A stretch of DNA of 64,000 nt. It comes from an uncultured Actinomycetota bacterium. Lineage in GTDB: Bacteria; Actinomycetota; Actinomycetes; JBEVHX01. Positions 8,460 to 63,870 of the stretch are shown here, piece after piece. Below the pieces are notes generated by a model. It had not been told where the DNA came from. It was given only the letters and a program-made list of their open reading frames with translations, and ran no database searches. Each line of letters starts with the position of its first letter. The stretch's first letter is position 1. Location: assembly GCA_963836025.1 (NCBI GenBank), contig CAWIIE010000014.1, positions 8,739 through 72,738 on the forward strand. Reading direction: 5' to 3'. Made by a program: the position numbers and the translations under genes.

Positions 8460-10345
8460 CCGCGCGCGTGGGCGAGTACCGCAGCAACTACGACCGCAGC
8501 CTGGCCGACCCCGCCGGGTTTTGGGCTGAGGCCGCGCGGCTGGTGACCTGGCGGCACGAGCCGTCGGTCATCCTCGACGACCAGCGACCGCCGTTCTACC
8601 GCTGGTTCACCGACGGCGTGCTCAACACCTGCGAGAACGCGCTCGACCGGCACGTCGCGACCGGCCGTGGCGGGCAGACCGCGCTGATCTACGACAGCCC
8701 GGTCGCGCAGGTACAACGGCGTTACACCTACGCCGAGCTGCTCGACGAGACCGCGCGGTTCGCTGGCGTGCTGCGCTCACTCGGGGTCTCGCCGGGCGAC
8801 CGGGTCGTCATCTACCTGCCGATGGTGCCCGAAGCGGCGATCGCGATGCTGGCGTGCGCGCGCCTCGGCGCCGTGCACTCGGTCGTCTTCGGCGGCTTCG
8901 CGGCCAACGAGCTGGCGCTGCGCATCGACGACGCGCAGCCGAAGGTCGTGGTGACGGCGTCGTGTGGGTTGGAGGCGGGCCGGGTCATCGAGTACATGCC
9001 GTTGCTGGAACGTGCGATCGAGCTGGCCGCGCATCGGCCCGATCGGGTGGTCGTGCTCGCGCGGCCGCAGGCAGCTGCCCACCTGACACCGGGGCGCGAC
9101 GTCGACTGGGCCGAGCTGATGCGGGATGCGCAGCCGGTCGACCCGGTTCCGGTCGCGGCCACCGACCCGCTGTACGTGCTCTACACCTCGGGCACCACCG
9201 CCAAGCCCAAGGGCGTCGTTCGGGACAACGGCGGTCACGCGGTCGCCCTCGCCTGGAGTATGGCCAACATCTACGGCGTCGGCGCGGGCGATGTCTGGTG
9301 GGCAGCATCGGACGTCGGCTGGGTCGTCGGCCACTCCTACATCGTGTATGCGCCGCTGCTCGTCGGCGCGACGACCGTGCTGTATGAGGGGAAACCGGTC
9401 GGCACGCCAGACGCCGGCGCGTTCTGGCGCGTGGTGGCGGAGTACGGCGTCAAGGCGCTGTTCACCGCACCAACGGCGATCAGGGCCATCAAGAAGGAAG
9501 ACCCCAACGGCGAGCTGCTCGCGGCGCATGACGTGTCGTCGCTGACCACGCTGTTCCTCGCGGGTGAGCGGCTGGACCCGGACACGTGGACATGGGCCAC
9601 CGAGCGGCTGAACGTCCCGGTGGTGGACCACTGGTGGCAGACCGAGACCGGCTGGCCGGTCGCCGCGAACCTGCGTGGGCTCGAACCGATGCCGATCAAG
9701 CCCGGGTCTCCGACCGTGCCGGTCCCGGGGTACGACGTCCGCATCCTCGACCCGCACGGCGTCGAAGTCGGCCCCGGTGTGGAGGGGGCGATCTGCATCA
9801 AGCTGCCGCTGCCGCCGGGAACGCTGCCCACGTTGTGGCGGGACGATGCCCGGTTCGTCTCCTCGTACTTGTCCGCGTTCGACGGCTACTACCTCACCGG
9901 TGACGGTGGGTACGTCGACGAAGACGGTTACCTGTTCGTCATGGGCCGCACCGACGACGTCATCAACGTCGCTGGCCATCGCCTGTCCACCGGGTCGATG
10001 GAGGCCGCACTTGCCGGCCATCCGGCGGTGGCCGAGTGCGCGGTGATCGGGGTCCACGACGAGCTCAAGGGGTCGGTCCCGCGCGGCCTGGTCGTGCTCA
10101 AGGCCGGTGTCGACGTCGACATCGAGGAACTCAAGGCGCAGCTGATCGCCCGGGTGCGCAACGAGATCGGTGCGGTTGCGGCCTTCAAGCAGGTGGACGT
10201 TGTGCCGGGGTTGCCGAAGACGCGCTCGGGCAAGATCCTCCGCCGCTCGTTGCGCGCAATCGCTGAGGGGCGGGACGAGCCGGTGCCAGCAACCATCGAC
10301 GACCCGACGATCCTCGACACCCTGCGCACCATGATCACGAGTTGA
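8456..10345 (+). CDS. AMP-forming acyl-CoA synthetase of the acetyl/propionyl-CoA synthetase family (PrpE-like, about 629 aa)
   Basis: EYRSNYDRSLADPAGFWAEAARLVTWRHEP N-terminus, YTSGTTAKPKGV AMP-binding motif, C-terminal PKTRSGKILRR. The GTG start at 8456 overlaps the upstream stop. The tool's 931-aa ORF is a 5' over-extension. Confidence 0.8.
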   Translation: MTARVGEYRSNYDRSLADPAGFWAEAARLVTWRHEPSVILDDQRPPFYRWFTDGVLNTCENALDRHVATGRGGQTALIYDSPVAQVQRRYTYAELLDETARFAGVLRSLGVSPGDRVVIYLPMVPEAAIAMLACARLGAVHSVVFGGFAANELALRIDDAQPKVVVTASCGLEAGRVIEYMPLLERAIELAAHRPDRVVVLARPQAAAHLTPGRDVDWAELMRDAQPVDPVPVAATDPLYVLYTSGTTAKPKGVVRDNGGHAVALAWSMANIYGVGAGDVWWAASDVGWVVGHSYIVYAPLLVGATTVLYEGKPVGTPDAGAFWRVVAEYGVKALFTAPTAIRAIKKEDPNGELLAAHDVSSLTTLFLAGERLDPDTWTWATERLNVPVVDHWWQTETGWPVAANLRGLEPMPIKPGSPTVPVPGYDVRILDPHGVEVGPGVEGAICIKLPLPPGTLPTLWRDDARFVSSYLSAFDGYYLTGDGGYVDEDGYLFVMGRTDDVINVAGHRLSTGSMEAALAGHPAVAECAVIGVHDELKGSVPRGLVVLKAGVDVDIEELKAQLIARVRNEIGAVAAFKQVDVVPGLPKTRSGKILRRSLRAIAEGRDEPVPATIDDPTILDTLRTMITS

Positions 10346-49609: not shown

Positions 49610-52441
49610 CTAGTGACTCGACTGAGACATGCGCGCACCCAGCTCAGCGCGGGAGTGGATTCCGAGTTTGCGGTAGATGCGGGCCATGTTCGCCTCGACG
49701 GTCTTGTGGCTGATGAACAGCGCAGCTGCGATCTCCTTGTTGGAGGCCCCCTGGGCGGCGAGTTGTGCGACCCGGTGCTCGCCCTCAGTGAGTTGGCCGG
49801 CGTTGACGCGGTGCAGGCCGACGCGTTGAAGTTCTCGACGGGAGCGGGCGGCCCAGCGGGCCGACCCGAGGCCGGTGAAAGTGGCCTCGGCCTGACGGAG
49901 CGATGTTTGCGCCTGACCGTGTCGTCGGGCGCGGCGCTGGATCATCCCCTCAACGAGCAACGTTCGTCCCCTCTCGAAGGGCATGTCGACCGCGGATTGC
50001 GCGTCAACGGCTTGGCCGATCGCGGTACGGGCCGCTTCGATGTCGCCGCGCGAGGCTAACAGCAGCGCTCGGCACCGGGCGCCCGTGAGGACGGCCCACG
50101 GTCGGTCAAGCTCATGGCCACGTTGCTCCAGTGTCTCGACCAAGGGGGCTGCCCGTTCCTGGCCGCCGAGGGCGATGAGCGCCTCGAGCGCGTCGGGCAG
50201 CAGGAAGGCGATGATCGGCTCCCATCGGTCGAGGTTCTCCAGGATCCGGACAAGCGGCTCACTTGCTCGCCAGGCTGCGTCAAAGTTCTCCTCCGAAAGC
50301 TCGAGCAACGTGGTCGAAGCGGCGATCCAGATGCCGGGCTGCAGGTAGCCGGAGGAGGCAAGTAGCTCCTGCGTCTGGGCGCAATAGTCGCGAGTACAGT
50401 CCACGTCCCCTCGATGCGCCGCGACGTACGCCTGCTGGCCGAGCGCCCACGCGTTCATCGAACGACTGCCGGTGAGCGTGGCGAGGTAGGTCGCTTCGAC
50501 CGCGAGGTCCGCCGCGAGTGCCAAGTTGCCAGCACGCAGCTCGAGCCAGGACAGCCAAGTGAGCGCAAAGGCAAGGTCGCTTTCATCGCCGCGCATGCGC
50601 GCCCGCGTGCAGAGGTCCGCAAGGGCGTCTCGCGCTTCGGCGTGGCGGCCGCAATACAAGAGCAGGAGTGCCCGCATCGTGGCGGGCCGCCGCTCGATCG
50701 GCACCAGACGGGTGCGGTCTTCGAGGGACACGGCGCGCTCGACCATGCCCCAGTCGTGCCCATCACCGCTCAAGAACCCGAGCATGGCCTGGTAGCCCAG
50801 CGCCTCAGCGATCAAAGCCGGGTCGCCAAAGCCCTCAGCGATCGTGAGCGCCCGATCCGCATATTTGGCTGCTCCCGGGAAGTCCCAGAGCTGCTCCCAC
50901 ATCTGTGCGTCGACGTACGACAGCGAGAGCAGGATTTCGGCGATGGTCCGCTCGGTGCCCGCGATACCAACGGCTTCGTGCAGCAGCCGGCTGGCTTGGA
51001 CGAAGTTGTCGTCGTTGTAGCTGACCTCGGCCAGCACGCGCAGCGCTTCGGCCCGCATGTGCCGGTCAACGGGCGTCTTCAACACCTGTTCCAGGAGTGC
51101 CCTAGCTCTCGCCCGGTCACCGGCGTGCACGTGGTGCTCGGCCGCGGAGATCGTCCGCTGGCCAGCGTCGAGCGGCTGGTCGGTCGGCGTCAGCCGAGCT
51201 GCCTGCTCCATGAGGTCTGCCGCGGTCTCCCAGGCGCCTCGCGTGCGCGCCGCGACTGCGCCGTCGATGAGCGCCCGCGCAACCGCCTCACCCGGAGATG
51301 CCGCCAAAGCCAGGTGTCTGGCCCGCTCCTCCGGCTCCGTGGCGAGATCTGCGAGCCGGCTGTGGAGCGCGATCCGCTGCCGCCTGGGCATCGCCTGATA
51401 GACGGCCGCCGCATACAGCGGGTGGCGAAACGTGATCACCTTGGTTGAGTCGATCGTGACGATTCCGGCTTCGACGGCGGGGTCTAGGGACTCTTCGTCG
51501 ACCATCTCGAGTGAGGGCGATGACAGCGCCGCGCAGACGGCCAACGCCTCTTGGGTGATCACCGGCAGCCGACGGATGTGATCGTCGATCAGTGCCTTCA
51601 GGGTGTCGGGGATCGGGATGTCATCGTTGACGCCGAGGGTCCCGCCGTTCGCCTCGATCTCCCGGGCGATCTCGATGGCGTGCAGCGGGTTGCCGCCCGA
51701 TGACTTGTGGATGCGGAGCATCATCGGACGCGGGATAGGCCCGGTGAGCGTGGGGCTGATCACGTCGTGCAGAGCGGCCAGGCTCAGCGGCCCGAGGGTC
51801 AACCGGGTGTGTTGCTCGGGCCGCGCAAGCCGAGCGACGTCCAGTTGCATTGGATGCCCGCTACGGTGGGCCAGCATCCATGCGATGTGCACGTTTTCCA
51901 GCCGGCGCAGCGCAAACCCGATCATCGTTGCCGATGCTCGATCCAGCCATTGCTCATCGTCGATGGCGATCAGCAGGGGCTGTTTGTCGCTCATGGCCGC
52001 CAGGACTGACTTCAGTGATGCGGCGATGCGACGCGGCTCGAGCGGCTCACCGTCCGCCCCGGTTCGGAGCATCGCGACATCGAGCGCGCGCCGTTGAATC
52101 GGGGGCAGGGCCTCCAGCTCAACGTTCGAAATCGCCTCGAGCAGATCGGCAACAGCGGCAAGCGCCATGGTCATCTCGTACTCGGCTGCACGGCAGGACA
52201 ACACGCCGAAGCCCATGGCCTGAGCGCGTCGAATGGCCTCCCACCAGACCGTTGTCTTGCCGATCCCCGCGTCGCCGTCAAGCACGAGTACACGTGAACC
52301 GTGAGACGCCGCCGCGAGCACATCGTCGACAATCGCGAGCTCGCGGTCGCGACCGATACACGCAGCCATGTCACCTGCCTGAGCGATCGCCGTCGCCGAC
52401 GATTCCTGGCGCCGGTGGACGCCAACCAAAAGGTAGGACAA
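49610..52441 (-). CDS. LAL-type regulator (N-terminal AAA/P-loop ATPase, TPR-like middle, C-terminal LuxR HTH)
   Basis: LVLDGDAGIGKTTV Walker A. C-terminal LTEGEHRVAQLAAQGASNKEIAAALFISHKTVEANMARIYRKLGI (LuxR HTH). 943 aa. Confidence 0.85.
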   Translation of the reverse strand: MSYLLVGVHRRQESSATAIAQAGDMAACIGRDRELAIVDDVLAAASHGSRVLVLDGDAGIGKTTVWWEAIRRAQAMGFGVLSCRAAEYEMTMALAAVADLLEAISNVELEALPPIQRRALDVAMLRTGADGEPLEPRRIAASLKSVLAAMSDKQPLLIAIDDEQWLDRASATMIGFALRRLENVHIAWMLAHRSGHPMQLDVARLARPEQHTRLTLGPLSLAALHDVISPTLTGPIPRPMMLRIHKSSGGNPLHAIEIAREIEANGGTLGVNDDIPIPDTLKALIDDHIRRLPVITQEALAVCAALSSPSLEMVDEESLDPAVEAGIVTIDSTKVITFRHPLYAAAVYQAMPRRQRIALHSRLADLATEPEERARHLALAASPGEAVARALIDGAVAARTRGAWETAADLMEQAARLTPTDQPLDAGQRTISAAEHHVHAGDRARARALLEQVLKTPVDRHMRAEALRVLAEVSYNDDNFVQASRLLHEAVGIAGTERTIAEILLSLSYVDAQMWEQLWDFPGAAKYADRALTIAEGFGDPALIAEALGYQAMLGFLSGDGHDWGMVERAVSLEDRTRLVPIERRPATMRALLLLYCGRHAEARDALADLCTRARMRGDESDLAFALTWLSWLELRAGNLALAADLAVEATYLATLTGSRSMNAWALGQQAYVAAHRGDVDCTRDYCAQTQELLASSGYLQPGIWIAASTTLLELSEENFDAAWRASEPLVRILENLDRWEPIIAFLLPDALEALIALGGQERAAPLVETLEQRGHELDRPWAVLTGARCRALLLASRGDIEAARTAIGQAVDAQSAVDMPFERGRTLLVEGMIQRRARRHGQAQTSLRQAEATFTGLGSARWAARSRRELQRVGLHRVNAGQLTEGEHRVAQLAAQGASNKEIAAALFISHKTVEANMARIYRKLGIHSRAELGARMSQSSH

Positions 52442-54574: not shown

Positions 54575-54675
54575 GAACGGCACTCCGGGCGCGGCCTTCG
54601 TCAACTGTCCGCAGCGTAGCCACCTTGGCTACGCTCGACGGAGATTTGGGCGGGGGGCGTGGGAGCGAGGGCGCC

Positions 54676-55431
54676 ATGGCTGAACGCTTCACCGATCGAG
54701 TGGTCGTCGTCGACGCCGAGAACCGTGAGGTCCTCCAGTTCGATGCGCGGTTTGCCGTACTCGACCTTGGTCAGGCAGGGAACGAGGGTGACTTGCGTCT
54801 GCGTGGTGACGACGGTGAGTTCACGTTTCACCTCGACGGTGGCAGGCAGCTCCTGCTCGTCCGGGATCCCGCCGGGCGTGACGTCCTTCAGTTCACCGGG
54901 CCGAACGCTTTGCTCAGGGTGGGCGCGCGTGGCAACGAGGGCGACATCTACGTCGTGGACAGCAACGGTGACGTATCGATCCACCTGGACGGTGGATCGG
55001 GCGACATCGTGCTTAAGAATGCCGACTGCGCCGAGGAGTTCGACTGCACTGACCGCGAGGCGCCGCCGCCGGGGTCGGTCGTTGTGCTGCGCGACGACGG
55101 TGGCGTGGGCGTCAGTGAACGTGCGTACGACACCCGAGTCGCGGGCGTCGTGTCCGGGGCGGGTGGCTACCGGCCCGCGATCGTGCTCGGCGCGGGCAGG
55201 GCACGCTCGTCGAGCCGTGTGCGGGTCGCCCTCACCGGTCGAGTGGCATGTCGAGTCGACGCCGCGCAGCGGCCCGTGCGCGTGGGCGATCTGTTGACAA
55301 CGTCGTCCCGCCGAGGGCATGCGATGGTTGCCGAGTCAGGGGCTCGTGCCGTCGGCTCGGTCGTCGGGAAGGCAATGGGGTCGCTGCCAGACGGCACCGG
55401 ACTCGTCCCGATGCTTGTCATGCTGCGCTGA
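54676..55431 (+). CDS. hypothetical protein with internal about-40-aa beta-repeats (GNEGD...HLDGG) and a conserved-looking C-terminal domain
   Basis: REVLQFDARFAVLDLGQAGNEGDLRLRGDDGEFTFHLDGG and RDVLQFTGPNALLRVGARGNEGDIYVVDSNGDVSIHLDGG. The C-terminus is RVAGVVSGAGGYRPAIVLG...VRVGDLL. No family recognised. Confidence 0.5.
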   Translation: MAERFTDRVVVVDAENREVLQFDARFAVLDLGQAGNEGDLRLRGDDGEFTFHLDGGRQLLLVRDPAGRDVLQFTGPNALLRVGARGNEGDIYVVDSNGDVSIHLDGGSGDIVLKNADCAEEFDCTDREAPPPGSVVVLRDDGGVGVSERAYDTRVAGVVSGAGGYRPAIVLGAGRARSSSRVRVALTGRVACRVDAAQRPVRVGDLLTTSSRRGHAMVAESGARAVGSVVGKAMGSLPDGTGLVPMLVMLR

Positions 55432-55439
55432 GGACGTCG

Positions 55440-56660
55440 TTGACCACGTCGCTGAAGGCGCTCGCGCAGTGCCTGGGGTTGTCCGACGAGGTGTCGGTCA
55501 GGACGGAAATGCTGCCGCGGGCCGAGTCGGGCCGGCCGGGACGCCCTGGCATACCCCTGTCGGGAGAGGTCTCGCTGCTCAACGTGATGCGCTTCCTCGA
55601 GTGGCAGTGGTGCGACAGTGCCAACTACCTGAAGATGGCAGTCCCTGCGGAATTGCGATCACCGTCGCGCGAGGAGGCCCAGATCGCGGTCGACGGTGTA
55701 GCAGAGAAGGTCACGCTGTTCATGGGGAAGTCCGACTGGGAGCTCGACTGGCATATCTTTCCGCGCCTCGACGAGCCGGTCATGACTCGGCTGCAGGCGG
55801 TCGGTCGACTCAGAGGGACCCTGTTCTGCGAATGGATGGGCGTCGACCGCTGGGAAGACGAGATCTTCGGTCGGCAATGGTGGTCAAGCGACATGGACCG
55901 CATCCTGTCCCTGCGTTGGCCGTTGCCCGACGCCCGATCAGGTGCGGAAACCGCATCCGAGCATTGGAGCCTGGTCGAGGACGACAACCAGGGCGGCAGT
56001 GCGGAGATCGTGGCCGACATCAACAACGCGGCCAAACGCGGAAACGCGAAGATCGTGGGTGGTCGTGTCTACCTGCAGGGTGCATTCGTCATGGACGACC
56101 CCACCGACACCGACGACCATGCTCATCTCGAAATCCACCCGTTGGACTCGGTCGCGTATGCGCTGGACAGTGACGGCGCCGTGCTTGCCCAACGCGGGAC
56201 GGACACAACTTGGCCGCGGAGCACGGTGGTCTGGCGGGTCGGCGTCGTGACCAACGCGGGGTTCCACCGGATCAACGGATGCAGTTTCCTGGAACAGGAT
56301 CGAACCACTGTTTGGTACCTGGACCTGCCAACGCTCGCGGGCTTGCCCACGATCGCCGTCCGCGTCGACGACTCGGAGCCGGGTTTCTGGCACTCCCCCA
56401 CGAACAGCCGGTTCGGCAGCCGCGGTGTGCGCAACATCGACGTGCAGCCGCGGCCGGACGGGAGCGACCGTGACATCAGCGCCTTCCCGGTCGATCCGTC
56501 AGACGGTCGGAGAAAGCTGCGCGTCGAAGTCACCATGGCGCGGCCGGACGACTGGGGCGGGCTGTTCCTGCGCGACTATCGCATTACGGCCCGCAGCGTG
56601 GTCGCCTCCGCCGACGAACTGGGTGCGCCCCCGGACGCTGGTTCACGGCCTGTCAAATAG
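55440..56660 (+). CDS. hypothetical protein (about 400 aa), co-directional with and 8 nt after the repeat protein
   Basis: Probable TTG 55440 or ATG about 55510. High GC3 throughout, Trp-rich (WQW, WELDW, WWSSDMD). No family recognised. Confidence 0.45.
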   Translation: MTTSLKALAQCLGLSDEVSVRTEMLPRAESGRPGRPGIPLSGEVSLLNVMRFLEWQWCDSANYLKMAVPAELRSPSREEAQIAVDGVAEKVTLFMGKSDWELDWHIFPRLDEPVMTRLQAVGRLRGTLFCEWMGVDRWEDEIFGRQWWSSDMDRILSLRWPLPDARSGAETASEHWSLVEDDNQGGSAEIVADINNAAKRGNAKIVGGRVYLQGAFVMDDPTDTDDHAHLEIHPLDSVAYALDSDGAVLAQRGTDTTWPRSTVVWRVGVVTNAGFHRINGCSFLEQDRTTVWYLDLPTLAGLPTIAVRVDDSEPGFWHSPTNSRFGSRGVRNIDVQPRPDGSDRDISAFPVDPSDGRRKLRVEVTMARPDDWGGLFLRDYRITARSVVASADELGAPPDAGSRPVK

Positions 56661-58653: not shown

Positions 58654-59145
58654 TCAGGTCAACGTCACCAGCGCAGCTCGGATCACATCGGGGATTGGCT
58701 GCGGCCGGCGCGTGGTGGCGTCGACGTACACGTGCACGAACCGACCAACGGCGTGCGGCGCCGGATCGATGGTGCCGTCCGGACTCTCGCGGAACACTGC
58801 CAGCTGGTAGATCACGCTGGTGCGCCCGCGGTGCTCCAGCCCAACACCTACCTGCACGACGTCTGGAAACGACAGCTCACGCAGGTATCGACATGAGGTC
58901 TCGACGACGACGCCGAATGCCGGCAGCGCACGGATGTCGGTCCCAGTCGCGTCGATGAGCCAGCCGTTGACCGAGTCGTCGAACCAGTTGTAGTAGACGA
59001 CGTTGTTGACGTGGCCGTAGACGTCGTTGTCCGCCCACCGGGTGTGCAGCCGGCGAAGGACGCGGAAGGCGCCCGGCGTGGGCAGCGGGTCAACTGTGGA
59101 CGGCCGCTCGCGCCGCTCTTCGCCTTCAGCTCCGACGACCTGCAC
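58654..59145 (-). CDS. hotdog-fold acyl-CoA thioesterase, paralog of 29749-30237
   Basis: WADNDVYGHVNNVVYYNWFDD. About 90% nt identity to copy 1. The start is uncertain (a GTG near 59145). The frame stays open upstream into the racemase remnant. Confidence 0.6.
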   Translation of the reverse strand: MQVVGAEGEERRERPSTVDPLPTPGAFRVLRRLHTRWADNDVYGHVNNVVYYNWFDDSVNGWLIDATGTDIRALPAFGVVVETSCRYLRELSFPDVVQVGVGLEHRGRTSVIYQLAVFRESPDGTIDPAPHAVGRFVHVYVDATTRRPQPIPDVIRAALVTLT

Positions 59146-59330
59146 GAGGTCACGGTACGGGGGTTGACCATTGGTCCCGCACCGCACCGAGGGTCGTGCT
59201 GCCGGCTGCGCGGTGCGGTCCGGACGGATCGGGGCGTTCTCGAGAACCGGGGAGCTGGGGCCGGCTGCGTCATAGCGATGGTATCCATGAAGGTGTCCCG
59301 CGCTTTCAGGTGCGGATGCGTCGGAGCATC
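58658..59330. repeat. segmental duplication, copy 2
   Basis: See copy 1. Copy 2 retains more of the racemase C-terminus. Confidence 0.7.
59146..59330 (-). pseudogene. 3' remnant of CaiB/BaiF family-III CoA-transferase / alpha-methylacyl-CoA racemase (second copy)
   Basis: GTLYAEFIKRLGLDDAPTHPHLKARDTFMDTIAMTQPAPAPRFSRTP has the HPHN/L.AR..F...QPAPAPRFSRTP C-terminal signature. A metallophosphoesterase-like fragment (DVGAPYYGNHET) lies further upstream. Confidence 0.4.
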
Positions 59331-59593
59331 GTCGAGCCCGAGCCGCTTGATGAACTCGGCATACAAAGTCCCGTTCCAGAGCCCCGACCGCCATGTACCG
59401 GCTGTCCGCCGTCTCGTGGTTGCCGTAGTACGGGGCGCCGACATCAATCAGGCTCGTCCCCCGAGCGCTGCAGAGTTGCACCTGGCGGCAGAACATTCAG
59501 ACTGTCTGAAGGCAGCGCAGCAGGCAGCGCCCGCTCCGTCGACCAGGTCGGGACGACTGGCGTGCCAGCGGTGAAAACGTGATCGGTTGAAGG

Positions 59594-60733
59594 GTGGCTC
59601 GCGTGCGCATCCAAGCGGCAGTCTTGAACAGGTCCGGCGCAAGCAGGCCATATTCGACATCCGGGCCGCTCGAGGTCACAGAGCTGGAGCTCGACCCGCC
59701 CGGCCCGGGCGAAGTTCTCGTCCGCGTCGAGGCCGCCGGGCTGTGTCACTCCGACCTGTCGGTCGTGGACGGCAACCGACCCCGGCCGCTGCCGATGGCG
59801 CTTGGGCACGAGGCCGCGGGGATCGTGCTCGAGATCGGTGCAGGCGTCTACGACGTCGAGCCCGGCGATCACGTCGTCTGCGTCTACGTGCCGAGCTGCG
59901 GAGTCTGCCGACACTGCTCATCGGGTCGGCCCGCGCTCTGCGCCTCCGCGGCCCGCGCCAACGGCGCTGGCGACCTGATCCGCGGCGGCAGCCGACTGCG
60001 AGATCCGTCCGACGGTCGGGAGATTCGTCACCATCTCGGGGTCTCTGGTTTCGCGAGCCACGCCGTGGTCGATCGCAACACCCTCGTCGTCATCGAACCT
60101 GATGTGCCGTTCGAGGTCGCTGCACTCTTCGGCTGCGCCATGCTCACCGGGTTTGGCGCCGTGACGCATACCGCCGACGTTCGCCCCGGCAGTGCGGTCG
60201 CGGTCTTTGGTCTGGGGGGTGTCGGGCTTGCCACCGTCATGGCGGCGGCGTCCGCCGGCGCACAGCCGGTCGTGGCAGTCGACCCGATCCCCGCCAAGCG
60301 GCAGCTCGCGCTCGAGCTGGGCGCAACTCACGCATGTTCACCTGACGATGCCGACGATGTCGTTGCCCAGGTCGCACCAGGTGGCGTCGACTGGGCCTTC
60401 GAGGTCGTCGGTTCGGCCGCCGTGCTCGAGGCCGCATATGCGCTCACTGGACGCGGCGGCGGCACCGTCGCCATCGGCCTCCCCCACCCCGATGCAAAGC
60501 TCGTCTTGCCAGCACTGAGCATCGTGGCAGACAACCGCTCGATCCTCGGCTCATACATGGGCTCGGCCCAGCCCCAGCTCGACATTCCCGTGATGATCCG
60601 GCTGTGGCGCTCGGGTTGCCTGCCCGTCGATCGCCTGACGAGCGACGAGCTGCCGCTTGGCCACATCAACCGAGCCCTCGATGCCCTGGCCGACGGCACC
60701 GCGGTTCGTCAGGTTCTCCGTCCGGCGCACTAA
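59594..60733 (+). CDS. zinc-dependent alcohol dehydrogenase (class III / formaldehyde-dehydrogenase-like MDR)
   Basis: GLCHSDLSVVDG and GHEAAGIVLEIG (zinc ligands), CGVCRHCSSG (structural zinc), VAVFGLGGVGLATVMAA (Rossmann). Confidence 0.85.
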   Translation: MARVRIQAAVLNRSGASRPYSTSGPLEVTELELDPPGPGEVLVRVEAAGLCHSDLSVVDGNRPRPLPMALGHEAAGIVLEIGAGVYDVEPGDHVVCVYVPSCGVCRHCSSGRPALCASAARANGAGDLIRGGSRLRDPSDGREIRHHLGVSGFASHAVVDRNTLVVIEPDVPFEVAALFGCAMLTGFGAVTHTADVRPGSAVAVFGLGGVGLATVMAAASAGAQPVVAVDPIPAKRQLALELGATHACSPDDADDVVAQVAPGGVDWAFEVVGSAAVLEAAYALTGRGGGTVAIGLPHPDAKLVLPALSIVADNRSILGSYMGSAQPQLDIPVMIRLWRSGCLPVDRLTSDELPLGHINRALDALADGTAVRQVLRPAH

Positions 60734-60764: not shown

Positions 60765-60883
60765 CTAGCTGATGTCCATGACGTCGATCTGGCTGGCGTA
60801 CTTCTCGGCGATCGGCCGACGCTTGAGCTTCATGGTCGGAGTCAGCTCGTCGCTGTCGGGGCCCACCGCAGGCGGGGTTGACT
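60765..60883 (-). pseudogene. 3'-terminal stub (about 38 codons) of a long-chain fatty-acid--CoA ligase (ACSL/FadD15-type) gene
   Basis: The minus strand reads ...GPDSDELTPTMKLKRRPIAEKYASQIDVMDIS*, the conserved ACSL C-terminal motif. An in-frame TAG lies immediately upstream. The rest of the gene is absent and replaced by the STAND gene on the other strand. Confidence 0.4.
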
Positions 60884-60935: not shown

Positions 60936-63617
60936 GTGTCGTACATCGTGGGGGGGCCCCGGGCAATGGAAGCACTCGCAGACGACCCACGACTGGTCGT
61001 CCCGATTCGGACGCCGGACCAGCGGCTGCGCGTCTTCGTGTCCTCGACGCTCGGCGAGTTGGCCGACGAACGGGCCGCTGTTCGACGAGCGGTCGAGGCG
61101 CTTCGGCTGACGCCCGTCATGTTCGAGATGGGGGCCCGACCACACCCACCACGCGCGCTGTACCGCGCATACCTCCAGCAGAGCCAGGTCTTCGTCGGCC
61201 TGTACTGGCAACGGTACGGATGGGTCGCGCCCGACGAGGCGGTGTCCGGACTCGAGGACGAATACCTGCTATCAGACGGGATGCCGCGTCTGGTCTACGT
61301 CAAGCGACCGGCCTCCGACCGTGAACCGCGACTCGGCGAGCTGCTCACGCGCATCCAGACCGACGACCAGCTCTCCTACCGTGCGTTCGCCGACACGGAG
61401 GAGCTTGAGCAGCTCGTGAAGGACGACCTCGTGGTCCTCCTCAGCGAGCGGTTCGCGGCAACCGGCAACGCACCAGGTGGCGGGTCGTGGCACCCAACGC
61501 GTGTGCCCCTTCCGTCGACCCCGACGTTCGGGCGCGACGCCGACATGGCCGCGGTCATGGCGGCTCTTGAGTCGGGGACCCGGCTGCTCACACTGGTGGG
61601 ACCAGGCGGAGTCGGCAAGAGCCGTCTCGCGCTTGAGGTGTGCCGGCGGGTGCAGTCCCGCTATGCCGACGGGGTCGTCTTCGTGCCGCTGGAGTCGGTG
61701 ACTGAGCCCGATTACGTGATGCGCGTGTTCGCCCGCAGCGTCGGAGCCGCCCTCGAGGGGAATCAGCCGGCGCTGGACGCCGCGATGAGACGCCTCAACG
61801 GACGCGCCTGTCTGCTCCTGGTCGACAACTTCGAGCAGGTCGTCGAGGCCGCACCCGAGCTTGGCAGGCTGATCGACGCTTGCCCGGGCGTCCAGGCGCT
61901 CGTCACAAGCCGTCGACCGCTACGGTTGCGCGGCGAGCGGGAACACCCCGTCGCGCCGTTGGACGTCCCGCCGGAAATCAGCACACTCGTGCCCGGGCAG
62001 CGCTTCTCACCCGAGCAAGCCGAGGCGTTCCCGTCGGTCGAGTTGTTCGTCGGCCGAGCGCAGGCCGTCCGACCCGACTTCCACCTCGACGGCCGCAACG
62101 GGAGTGACGTCGCCACGCTGGTCCGCTGCCTGGACGGCTTGCCGCTCGCTCTGGAGATCGCAGCCGCACGCACCCGGGTCTTGTCGCCGGGTGCCCTCGT
62201 CCAACGCCTGCTGAAGGACCAGGGGGTTCTCGGGACAGCAGCCGTCGACGTGCCTCTGAGGCAGCGGACGTTGCGCACCACGTTGGAGTGGAGCCACAGC
62301 CTTCTCACGCCGAGCCAACAGCGGTTGTTCGCAAGAATGAGCGTCTTCCCCGACGGCGCGACATTGGACGCGATCGACGCCGTGTGTGGCGACGCGGAGA
62401 CCGACGTGGTCGAAGGCGTGTCGGCCCTGCTCGAGAACAACCTCGTCCGGCAGGCGTCCGAGGCGGTGGACGGGCAGCCAAGAATCGCGATGCTGACAAC
62501 CGTCCACGGGTTCGCGCAGGAGCAGCTCGACGCATCTGACGAGGCCGATGTCCTCCGCGCGAGGATGGTCGACTGGTTCGTCGGGCAGGCCCAACTCGCC
62601 GACACCACCCTCGACCGGGCGGCACATCTGGCGTGGCCAGAACTCTTGCCCGATCTGCGAAACCTCCGCGCCGTCGCCTGGCTGCTGGTCGCCGATGGCG
62701 ACTGCGCCCGCCTTACCGGCTACATCTGGCACCTGTACGCCTTCTTGTGGCAATCCGGACTGACCAGCGGCGCCCTTGAATGGATCGAGCGCCTGAACGA
62801 TCTCGAATGCAGCCACGCCGATGACCAGCACCGCGCCCGGGCAGCGGGCCTGATCGCGATGGTCCGCCACCAGACCGGTGACTTCGACGGTGCGATGGAG
62901 GCGCTCAGCCTCGTCAACGTTGAGGCGGTTGAGGCCAGCGACCCGGCCGCGGCCGCGGTTCTCGAACTGTGCCGGGCCGTGACTTTGCCGTACTGGGACC
63001 GGATCGACGAGGCGCTCGTCGCGGCCGAGAATTCGGTGCGGGCAGCGCGGGCGTCCGGCTTCGCTTTCGCGGAGGGGTATGCGCTGGCGATCCAGGGTCT
63101 GGTCTCGCTCCTAGGCGGCGACATCGACCGTGGACTCGAGTTGAGCCGTGCTGCGCTTGATCTCGGCTCCGAGCTCGAGCTCGTGACCCTGATCGCGCAG
63201 CAGCACGGGATCTTGGCGCTGCACGCGGCAGGTCAGGGTGACGTCGCACAGGCCCGGTCCGGCTTGCGTGTCGCTCGCGACGTCCTCGGTGGCGACCGCG
63301 GCATCAACGAGCTGACGGCCCTGCTCGGCCACGCAGCCGTACTCGCAATGGTCGAAGGGCGGCCCGACGATGCGGTCCGCGCCCTGTCGTGCTCGGACGT
63401 GACTCTGCGACGACTGGGCCTGGGTAAGTGGCCCCTGTTCGAGCGTATGCGCGCAGGGATGGACGAGGCTGTGGCGGCGCAGGTCGGGGACCGCTACACC
63501 GCGCTCGTCGCGGAAGGGGCCGCGGCCGAGCCGTGGGCGTTGTTTGACCAGGTCGTGCAGGTCCCGATGAGCTCGGTCCAGGCTGCCGACCTCCGTCAGC
63601 CGGTTTCGACGTACTGA
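60936..63617 (+). CDS. STAND-class NTPase: N-terminal DUF4062-like domain + NB-ARC/AAA P-loop + C-terminal TPR-like array
   Basis: 893 aa. N-terminal RLRVFVSSTLGELADERAAVRRAVEAL...PVMFEMG...VFVGLYWQRYGW (DUF4062 pattern). Walker A LVGPGGVGKSRLA. Walker B LLLVDNFEQV. hhGR.Q motif VTSRRPL. Helical repeats to the C-terminus. Alternative start ATG 60966. Confidence 0.85.
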   Translation: MSYIVGGPRAMEALADDPRLVVPIRTPDQRLRVFVSSTLGELADERAAVRRAVEALRLTPVMFEMGARPHPPRALYRAYLQQSQVFVGLYWQRYGWVAPDEAVSGLEDEYLLSDGMPRLVYVKRPASDREPRLGELLTRIQTDDQLSYRAFADTEELEQLVKDDLVVLLSERFAATGNAPGGGSWHPTRVPLPSTPTFGRDADMAAVMAALESGTRLLTLVGPGGVGKSRLALEVCRRVQSRYADGVVFVPLESVTEPDYVMRVFARSVGAALEGNQPALDAAMRRLNGRACLLLVDNFEQVVEAAPELGRLIDACPGVQALVTSRRPLRLRGEREHPVAPLDVPPEISTLVPGQRFSPEQAEAFPSVELFVGRAQAVRPDFHLDGRNGSDVATLVRCLDGLPLALEIAAARTRVLSPGALVQRLLKDQGVLGTAAVDVPLRQRTLRTTLEWSHSLLTPSQQRLFARMSVFPDGATLDAIDAVCGDAETDVVEGVSALLENNLVRQASEAVDGQPRIAMLTTVHGFAQEQLDASDEADVLRARMVDWFVGQAQLADTTLDRAAHLAWPELLPDLRNLRAVAWLLVADGDCARLTGYIWHLYAFLWQSGLTSGALEWIERLNDLECSHADDQHRARAAGLIAMVRHQTGDFDGAMEALSLVNVEAVEASDPAAAAVLELCRAVTLPYWDRIDEALVAAENSVRAARASGFAFAEGYALAIQGLVSLLGGDIDRGLELSRAALDLGSELELVTLIAQQHGILALHAAGQGDVAQARSGLRVARDVLGGDRGINELTALLGHAAVLAMVEGRPDDAVRALSCSDVTLRRLGLGKWPLFERMRAGMDEAVAAQVGDRYTALVAEGAAAEPWALFDQVVQVPMSSVQAADLRQPVSTY

Positions 63618-63870
63618 CCCTGCGGTCCTAGGCGCCGGTAGGAGCAGTCGGCGGTTCGACCCGTCGTGCGGGTTTCACGCCGTATGGATCGTGCTGCGCT
63701 CGGCCCATCGACCACGCGCTGCAAGGCCGGCAGCTGTGTTTGCTGTTCGTGTCTCGGGTCGCCCATCGACTGCATGCGCCCCTGTCATGCGCGCCGCCCG
63801 CTCATCGGAAGAGTAGTGATCCGTCGAGCCGGCTCTGGCGCCCGTCGGGTCTGCGGACCATCGTTGCGGC

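Follow-up and report, generated by a model that had tools for sequence, protein, structure and literature searches.

Within the 64,000-nucleotide stretch analysed here (the window; positions 8,739 to 72,738 of contig CAWIIE010000014.1, from an uncultured Actinomycetota bacterium), the gene at 60936..63617 encodes a protein whose plan resembles that of a plant immune receptor: it has a TIR-like predicted NAD+ hydrolase (NADase) at its N-terminus, an NB-ARC-type switch in the middle and a TPR sensor at its C-terminus. By analogy with proteins reported in 2026, this NIR-STAND protein is an actinobacterial member of an already described kind, the NLR-like proteins with a NIR effector. We favour, with moderate confidence, the view that it is a ligand-gated, NAD+-depleting NLR-like switch with an anti-phage abortive-infection role; the architecture and the enzymology are held more firmly when that role is left aside. 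Abortive-infection defence against phage is the most likely biological role, judging from the characterised members of the effector family.

Domain architecture and the predicted effector

An earlier note on this DNA had proposed a tripartite DUF4062/STAND/TPR protein with an Avs-like logic, and both the domain matches and the AlphaFold model bear this layout out. The 893-aa open reading frame (ORF) is likewise real, its GC content at the three codon positions (0.76/0.48/0.83) being that of a genuine high-GC coding gene, and at 0.688 GC vs 0.68 for the whole window it shows no compositional anomaly. The features of the gene that carry the argument are the following:

60936..63617, plus strand: NIR-STAND ORF, 893 aa counted from the GTG at 60936
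61023..61463, plus strand: NIR/DUF4062 domain, residues 30-176, TIR-like beta/alpha fold of five strands with a long C-terminal helix, predicted NADase effector
61254..61256, plus strand: codon of Glu107 in the SGLEDEY motif, predicted catalytic glutamate from the profile alignment to KpSwz
61536..61955, plus strand: P-loop nucleotide-binding domain, residues 201-340, AAA_22 match (34.9 bits, above cutoff)
61599-61622, plus strand: Walker A motif GPGGVGKS, G222-S229
61812-61835, plus strand: Walker B motif LLLVDNFE, L293-E300
61956..62243, plus strand: helical ARC1-like domain, residues 341-436, from the model and fold matches to NB-ARC proteins
62136-62150, plus strand: GLPLA motif, G401-A405, invariant
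62244..62540, plus strand: winged-helix domain, residues 437-535, with a beta-hairpin at 505-518 and a precomputed Pfam HTH_77 match
62541..63575, plus strand: TPR-like alpha-solenoid, residues 536-880, about 9 helix pairs in the AlphaFold model, presumed sensor and most variable part

The N-terminal assignment made in the earlier note is secure: Pfam PF13271 (DUF4062) matches residues 32-110 with E=2.4e-18 and 66.6 bits vs a gathering score of 24.7, and DUF4062 is matched in 50/50 relatives. Modelled alone, the N-domain (predicted local distance difference test, pLDDT, 82) has the beta-alpha x5 topology of the TIR/nucleoside-deoxyribosyltransferase-like fold, and the TIR domains of RPS4, RRS1 and RPP1 are among its fold matches. 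A profile built from 16 N-domains of the clade and searched against the PDB matches the solved DUF4062 chain of KpSwz (10wc_A, E=6.4e-6) and, weakly, human TEP1 (11gz_A, E=0.035). The top PDB matches of a single-sequence phmmer search, designed alphaRep and HEAT proteins, were rejected as relatives of the N-terminus, being spurious matches to a short 'LGELADERAAV'-like repeat.

DUF4062 is a TIR-like NADase, which in the single-gene system Swarozyc (KpSwz, catalytic E97) is triggered by the phage portal and depletes NAD+ (Osinski et al., 10.64898/2026.05.01.722283). The domain has been renamed NIR and is the effector of the DUF4062-STAND-TPR Avs2 (PsAvs2, E108), Vulcan and Vesta (Le Mouellic et al., 10.64898/2026.09.04.749371); in the preprints of 2026 it occurs in one Avs2 protein as well as in "other NLR-like proteins". 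PsAvs2 in the NIR preprint shows the same match pattern as the N-domain studied here. The earlier statement that the protein has no recognisable TIR effector, and so is not a described Avs type, is outdated, because DUF4062 itself has now been shown to be a TIR-like NADase effector and a DUF4062-STAND-TPR Avs2 has been experimentally tested.

The residues on which this enzymology depends are retained. E107 of 'SGLEDEY' is aligned with the glutamate of KpSwz 'SFTE', chain residue 82, which corresponds to E97 provided that the deposited chain begins at residue 16. E107 is invariant in the 50-sequence alignment (A2), while F34 (the F of FxSST) and the RYG motif (Y94, G95) are invariant or nearly so among the 50 relatives and are also visible in the KpSwz and TEP1 alignments. 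KpSwz, PsAvs2, Vulcan, Vesta and TEP1 required the residues equivalent to E107, F34 and RYG for their defence or for their NADase activity. By analogy with these proteins, the DUF4062/NIR domain is the effector of the NIR-STAND protein and a predicted NADase.

The motif GARPHPPR (residues 66-73, window 61131-61154) forms the loop that joins strand B of the NIR domain to helix B; it is invariant in the clade and unlike the corresponding loop of KpSwz, and AlphaFold models its residues 67-69 with low confidence. The BB loop of KpSwz occludes the active site. Such a clade-specific loop would fit a different chemistry under the same switch, with the N-domain acting on CMP or another nucleotide N-glycoside (as MilB does), transferring nucleoside 2-deoxyribosyl groups or serving only as a scaffold for oligomerisation. 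The PsAvs2 domain was first labelled a CMP hydrolase by Gao et al., the structural similarity to MilB and to deoxyribosyltransferases is equally close, and some NIR domains lack NADase activity. Against this stand the sequence-profile likeness, which is to the DUF4062 NADases (KpSwz, TEP1) and not to the MilB or nucleoside deoxyribosyltransferase families, the position of the catalytic glutamate, which agrees with that of the NADases, and the depletion of NAD+ by PsAvs2 in spite of its CMP-hydrolase label. Another substrate is therefore improbable, and it would in any case be compatible with, not exclusive of, the endogenous signalling discussed below.

Downstream of the effector the full-length AlphaFold model (pLDDT 85.1) resolves, after NIR 32-176 and a low-confidence linker (177-200), a P-loop nucleotide-binding domain (201-338), a helical domain (359-432), a winged helix (441-533) and a paired-helix solenoid (537-875; pLDDT mostly >90). 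The order of nucleotide-binding, helical and winged-helix domains is that of Apaf-1 and the plant NLRs. The characteristic NB-ARC motifs are Walker A, Walker B, a sensor-1 arginine (TxR), GLPLA and an MHD-type histidine in the winged helix. The P-loop NTPase had been recognised in the earlier note from GPGGVGKS and LLLVDNF, which lie at residues 222 and 293, and the above-cutoff AAA_22 match agrees with it; a sensor-1-like TSR lies at residues 324-326. The four motifs are invariant or nearly so in the 50-sequence alignment, with K228 of Walker A, D297 and E300 of Walker B, R326 and GLPLA invariant.

The more specific claim of an NB-ARC domain calls for a caveat. For the protein itself the Pfam NB-ARC model (PF00931) scores below its cutoff (16.8 vs 23.5 bits), as do NACHT and nSTAND1 below theirs, while 39/50 relatives match NB-ARC (E<=1e-3, best 5.4e-11) and the motifs and the fold agree. 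TPR_12 is found in 24/50 relatives and TPR_MalT in 9/50, in keeping with the helix pairs of the model and with the TPR-like helical array that had been proposed. Foldseek places the full-length model closest to the STAND-TPR protein PH0952 (6mfv, E=7e-13), followed by plant NLR resistosomes, the TIR-NLRs RPP1 (6e-10), Roq1 and WRR4A among them, by Apaf-1 (3e-8) and by CED-4; the NB-ARC of NRC1 reaches a TM-score of 0.69 normalised to the target, the solenoid also matches the TPR of LGN, and Avs3 appears only further down the list as a distant fold match. The sub-cutoff Pfam score notwithstanding, motifs, relatives and predicted structure all support the NB-ARC/TPR reading.

The one canonical element that was not found is the MHD-type histidine, sought in the winged helix through the AfsR alignment and the family consensus. 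At window 62460-62500 the winged helix reads 'PRIAMLTTVHGF', where the AfsR 'FHD' is aligned opposite 'AML', its His-Asp being replaced, and where the family consensus is 'MLxTVRxYA'. We take the 'AML' position to be the site of the MHD motif. Mutation of the MHD motif auto-activates plant NLRs.

The chassis formed by NTPase and TPR has its closest relatives among signalling regulators. From residue ~190 onward the protein shares 28-40% identity with STAND-TPR modules that actinobacterial plasmids encode in PknK-type kinases, in LuxR-LAL and in BTAD/SARP regulators, and its alignment to the AfsR structures (8k60, 8jke) is long but scores low. This alignment and a weak local match to the NCBIfam AfsR model (36.6 bits, residues 217-333) are what could be said for a core AfsR-like transcriptional regulator. 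The cutoff of that model is 1430 bits, the Pfam scan found no SARP/BTAD, Trans_reg_C or other DNA-binding output domain, the N-terminus is an enzyme domain and synteny is lacking; a core regulator of this type is effectively refuted by the domain content and is exceedingly unlikely.

A stand-alone gene and its proposed role

The protein belongs to a large family. A word-based search returned 7,880 proteins at E<=1e-5, the best 120 of which all carry DUF4062 and are 41-72% identical to the query over nearly the full length. An exhaustive search with the N-domain profile, counted in clusters at 50% identity, gave 7,687 at E<=1e-3 and 910 at E<=1e-30, with a modal length of ~860-890 aa. Species-representative genomes hold at least 505 loci, mostly in metagenome-assembled genomes of Actinomycetota, with a minority in Chloroflexota, Bacteroidota, Acidobacteriota and one betaproteobacterium, and some genomes have two copies. 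The modules differ in their conservation, the mean pairwise identity being 0.69 for NIR, 0.51-0.56 for the NTPase modules and 0.31 for the TPR part.

No recurring neighbour was found in 63 loci when four genes on each side were clustered, the largest family being present in 6/63 at scattered positions. The gene therefore acts alone, as the single-gene unit that had been described. A relative of 72% identity has nothing in common with the 64-kb window except the gene itself, and since this relative shares no flanking genes and no neighbour recurs in the 63 loci, universal synteny is ruled out. With DUF4062 strongly matched and no conserved synteny, the gene is accessory and not core, as the earlier note had it.

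The proposed mechanism runs as follows. In the resting state the NB-ARC-type NTPase (nucleotide-binding, helical and winged-helix domains) and the TPR solenoid would keep NIR inactive. Binding of a trigger ligand by the variable solenoid would lift this autoinhibition, upon which the NTPase would exchange its nucleotide and oligomerise; the NIR domains gathered in this way would hydrolyse NAD+ via E107, and growth of the cell would be arrested. The sequence and the models directly show the identities of the domains, the conservation of catalytic and NTPase residues, the folds and a stand-alone gene that lacks synteny; the NADase activity, the dependence of activation on oligomerisation and the phage trigger are carried over from published NIR proteins and from STAND/NLR biology, and this scheme would apply to the NIR-STAND protein in so far as it behaves like them.

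Several observations weigh against this view. The PADLOC run proposed earlier as a check of defence membership was of little use: no model in PADLOC-DB v2.0.0 matches the protein beyond mad8 at E=0.024, and among 50 relatives the matches were confined to mad8 (2/50) and a generic TPR model (2/50). This database presumably includes models of Avs1-5, and by the measure of its profile hidden Markov models the protein falls outside the Avs families. Among 150 neighbours in 16 loci, a small sample searched with the same PADLOC release, dated 2023, no defence system was recognisable, and seven Pfam-annotated neighbourhoods hold metabolic enzymes, transporters and regulators with no recognisable defence system. 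The individual PADLOC matches in these neighbours were judged to be matches to generic domains and were not accepted as defence systems: mad3 in four proteins (equal to the count of ABC_tran and AAA_21 matches), PD-T4-6 models in one kinase, mad8 in two, and mad6 and MkoA once each. The N-domain clade gave one distant match on plasmids and none in phage genomes. By sequence similarity the NTPase/TPR chassis is of the regulator type, closest to AfsR, PknK and LuxR-LAL and not to Avs. Published tests of the NIR domains of NWD1, NWD2 and NPHP3 saw no NADase activity. Finally, one relative, P0096 (L088 8001-11165, 1054 aa, GCA_019639075.1), carries a class III nucleotide cyclase domain (PF00211, Guanylate_cyc) ahead of DUF4062-NB-ARC-TPR, which suggests two output domains on one switch.

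Two of these loci have features of their own. A 1002-aa TIR_2 protein is encoded 4 kb downstream of the P0096 gene. The sole plasmid match (L085 6001-7125, on plasmid pROB01 of Rhodococcus opacus B4) is a 374-aa DUF4062 protein that has no STAND module, shows a short Swarozyc/Evangelion-like architecture and is surrounded by hypothetical genes.

Part of the same evidence speaks for an endogenous signalling switch, in which a STAND-TPR module of the AfsR/PknK/LAL type would sense a cellular metabolite or stress instead of phage, and NIR would tune NAD+ or make an NAD-derived signal that controls dormancy, development or metabolism. The 28-40% identity of the chassis to PknK, LuxR-LAL and BTAD/SARP proteins and its alignment to AfsR, the ordinary chromosomal neighbourhoods, the absence of the clade from phages and its near absence from plasmids, and the added Guanylate_cyc signalling domain of P0096 are all in line with this idea, and the authors of the NIR work themselves consider that NIR proteins may have diversified in function, signal production included. 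However, all bacterial NIR proteins tested to date are anti-phage NAD+ depleters, synteny is lacking even with the 72%-identical relative, no partner is conserved in the 63 loci, the gene lies at a rearrangement junction (see below), and the sensor evolves fastest, as expected of an arms-race receptor. We regard endogenous signalling as the main rival explanation, though a rather unlikely one.

A further possibility concerns the clade as a whole, which counts at least 910 clusters at 50% identity, mostly from soil Actinomycetota. It might be a chromosomal NAD+-depleting life-or-death switch that arose by fusion of NIR onto an NB-ARC/TPR chassis of the AfsR/PknK/LAL type, and not a classical island-borne phage defence; its cues would possibly be endogenous or developmental as well as phage-derived. 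This cell-fate switch is put forward tentatively, and we would sooner bet against it than for it.

Gene start and flanking DNA

Three candidate start codons are available to the NIR-STAND gene, at 60936, 60948 and 60966. An identical protein on record from one metagenome contig of 254,692 bp in ENA was called from the ATG at 60966 (883 aa; public gene call). Since residue 24 is where the conservation with relatives sets in, and the AlphaFold model shows residues 1-29 as disordered (pLDDT <50), the ATG at 60966 (883 aa) or the GTG at 60948 is probably the start, rather than 60936. A scan for sigma-70 promoters found none. The flanking features are these:

59594..60733, plus strand: intact Zn-dependent alcohol dehydrogenase (Zn-ADH) gene, upstream on the same strand as the NIR-STAND gene
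60765..60881, minus strand: 3' remnant of a long-chain fatty-acid-CoA ligase gene, its last 38 codons, from a tblastn match to annotated ligases
63718..63744, plus strand: terminator-like hairpin with a T-rich tail, between the NIR-STAND stop codon and the APH gene, on weak evidence
from 63871: APH-family gene (PF01636), downstream of the NIR-STAND gene

The Zn-ADH gene and the NIR-STAND ORF are 200 bp apart, and the minus strand of this gap holds the ligase remnant, which encodes 'STPPAVGPDSDELTPTMKLKRRPIAEKYASQIDVMDIS*' with a stop codon ahead of the peptide and breaks off 55-85 bp short of the NIR-STAND start. It was identified by tblastn against plasmids, and the peptide is 63-78% identical to the extreme C-termini of annotated Rhodococcus ligases (E down to 4e-5); a PDB search with the 38-aa peptide gave no match. 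The destroyed housekeeping gene postulated in the earlier note is real, since this 38-codon ligase C-terminus is matched and neither the window nor the 10 kb that follow it contain an AMP-binding core motif. The remnant marks a rearrangement junction beside the NIR-STAND gene, and judging from the sequence the DNA that bears the STAND gene took the place of most of a fatty-acid-CoA ligase gene. Island boundaries were sought at the junction, but neither a tRNA nor any flanking repeat, direct or inverted, was present. An rve integrase gene lies ~9 kb downstream of the NIR-STAND gene, outside the window.

On the other side, the APH-like kinase gene follows as had been noted, but the spacer that separates it from the NIR-STAND gene (63618..63870, 253 bp) is not of lower GC: its value of 0.688 is identical to that of the gene. 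The terminator-like hairpin in this spacer should be read with the count of such sites in mind, 2 observed vs 1.0 +/- 1.1 expected, which is at chance level and not significant.

The surroundings of the gene are rich in LuxR-type STAND proteins. A STAND-type regulator with AAA_16 and GerE domains (~904-943 aa; window 49610-52441, minus strand) lies 8.5 kb upstream. Outside the window, ~4.5-7 kb downstream, a LuxR(GerE)-AAA_16-HTH_77 regulator (L081 14510-16964, minus strand) appears to be split into ORFs of 192 and 640 aa that overlap by 47 nt, which makes it either a frameshift pseudogene or an assembly error. A 243-nt direct repeat of 95% identity (L081 16765-17007 and 18573-18815, also outside the window) covers the 5' ends of two adjacent genes with GerE domains and looks like a recent local duplication. 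Upstream, a 470-aa ORF at window 55248-56660 (plus strand) has no Pfam match, and the public gene calls place there instead proteins of 251 aa (~54675-55430) and 201 aa (~56055-56660). In the 4HBT thioesterase ORF at window 58654-59496 (minus strand), the N-terminal ~150 aa have no Pfam match; by eye 'YYGNHETADSRYMAVGALE' in this ORF resembles a fragment of a family III CoA-transferase, which could be a second gene remnant.

Known systems and significance

The Avs layout, an effector, a STAND NTPase and a repeat sensor in one gene, is that of the NIR-STAND protein, and the nearest tested system is PsAvs2 from Pseudomonas chlororaphis, likewise a single gene encoding an N-terminal NIR with its catalytic glutamate, a STAND NTPase and C-terminal TPR-type repeats. 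PsAvs2 responds to terminase, and its output is NAD+ depletion and growth arrest (10.64898/2026.09.04.749371). In contrast to PsAvs2, the protein described here has an NB-ARC/AfsR-like NTPase and no PADLOC match, was found in no defence-island context and comes from an actinomycetotal host. Swarozyc (KpSwz), Evangelion (Ibarra-Chavez et al., 10.64898/2026.06.25.731849) and Vulcan are single-gene defence proteins with an effector of the same DUF4062 family, to which a small AUX domain or a set of HEAT repeats is attached directly, with no STAND NTPase; KpSwz is activated by assembly on the phage portal. Where Swarozyc and Evangelion are short, the NIR-STAND protein continues after the DUF4062 core with ~700 aa of STAND NTPase and TPR.

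AfsR (8k60, 8jke), the PknK-type kinases and LuxR-LAL share a homologous chassis of P-loop, helical, winged-helix and TPR domains with an output domain fused at one end. Their outputs are DNA-binding domains (SARP or LuxR) or kinases, whereas that of the NIR-STAND protein is a TIR-like enzyme. In structure, the NTPase and TPR are best matched overall by PH0952 (6mfv), with a TM-score of 0.58 normalised to the target, but the match is limited to this part and has no counterpart of the NIR domain. The plant TIR-NLRs RPP1, ROQ1 and WRR4A follow the same order from N-terminus to C-terminus: NADase, NB-ARC switch, repeat sensor. They differ in using a canonical TIR rather than NIR and LRR rather than TPR, at a sequence identity of 9-16%. 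In human TEP1, NWD1 and NWD2, too, an N-terminal NIR precedes a STAND NTPase and a repeat sensor; these eukaryotic proteins employ NACHT rather than NB-ARC and WD40 rather than TPR.

The annotation 'DUF4062 domain-containing protein / predicted ATPase' now points to a candidate NLR with a NADase effector. If the prediction is right, soil Actinomycetota would hold a very large family of TIR-NLR-like NAD+ depleters whose switch module shares its ancestry with such well-studied regulators of antibiotic pathways as AfsR, PknK and LAL, and the NIR discoveries of 2026 would reach from Proteobacteria to the main antibiotic-producing phylum. The family would also provide a tractable bacterial model of an NB-ARC switch that controls a TIR-like NADase, and it would bear on whether such proteins serve phage defence only or cell-fate signalling too. 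Should the cell-fate switch prove correct, the clade would be the closest bacterial counterpart of the plant TIR-NLRs, combining a TIR-like NADase with a true NB-ARC, and an evolutionary bridge from signalling STANDs to immune NLRs.

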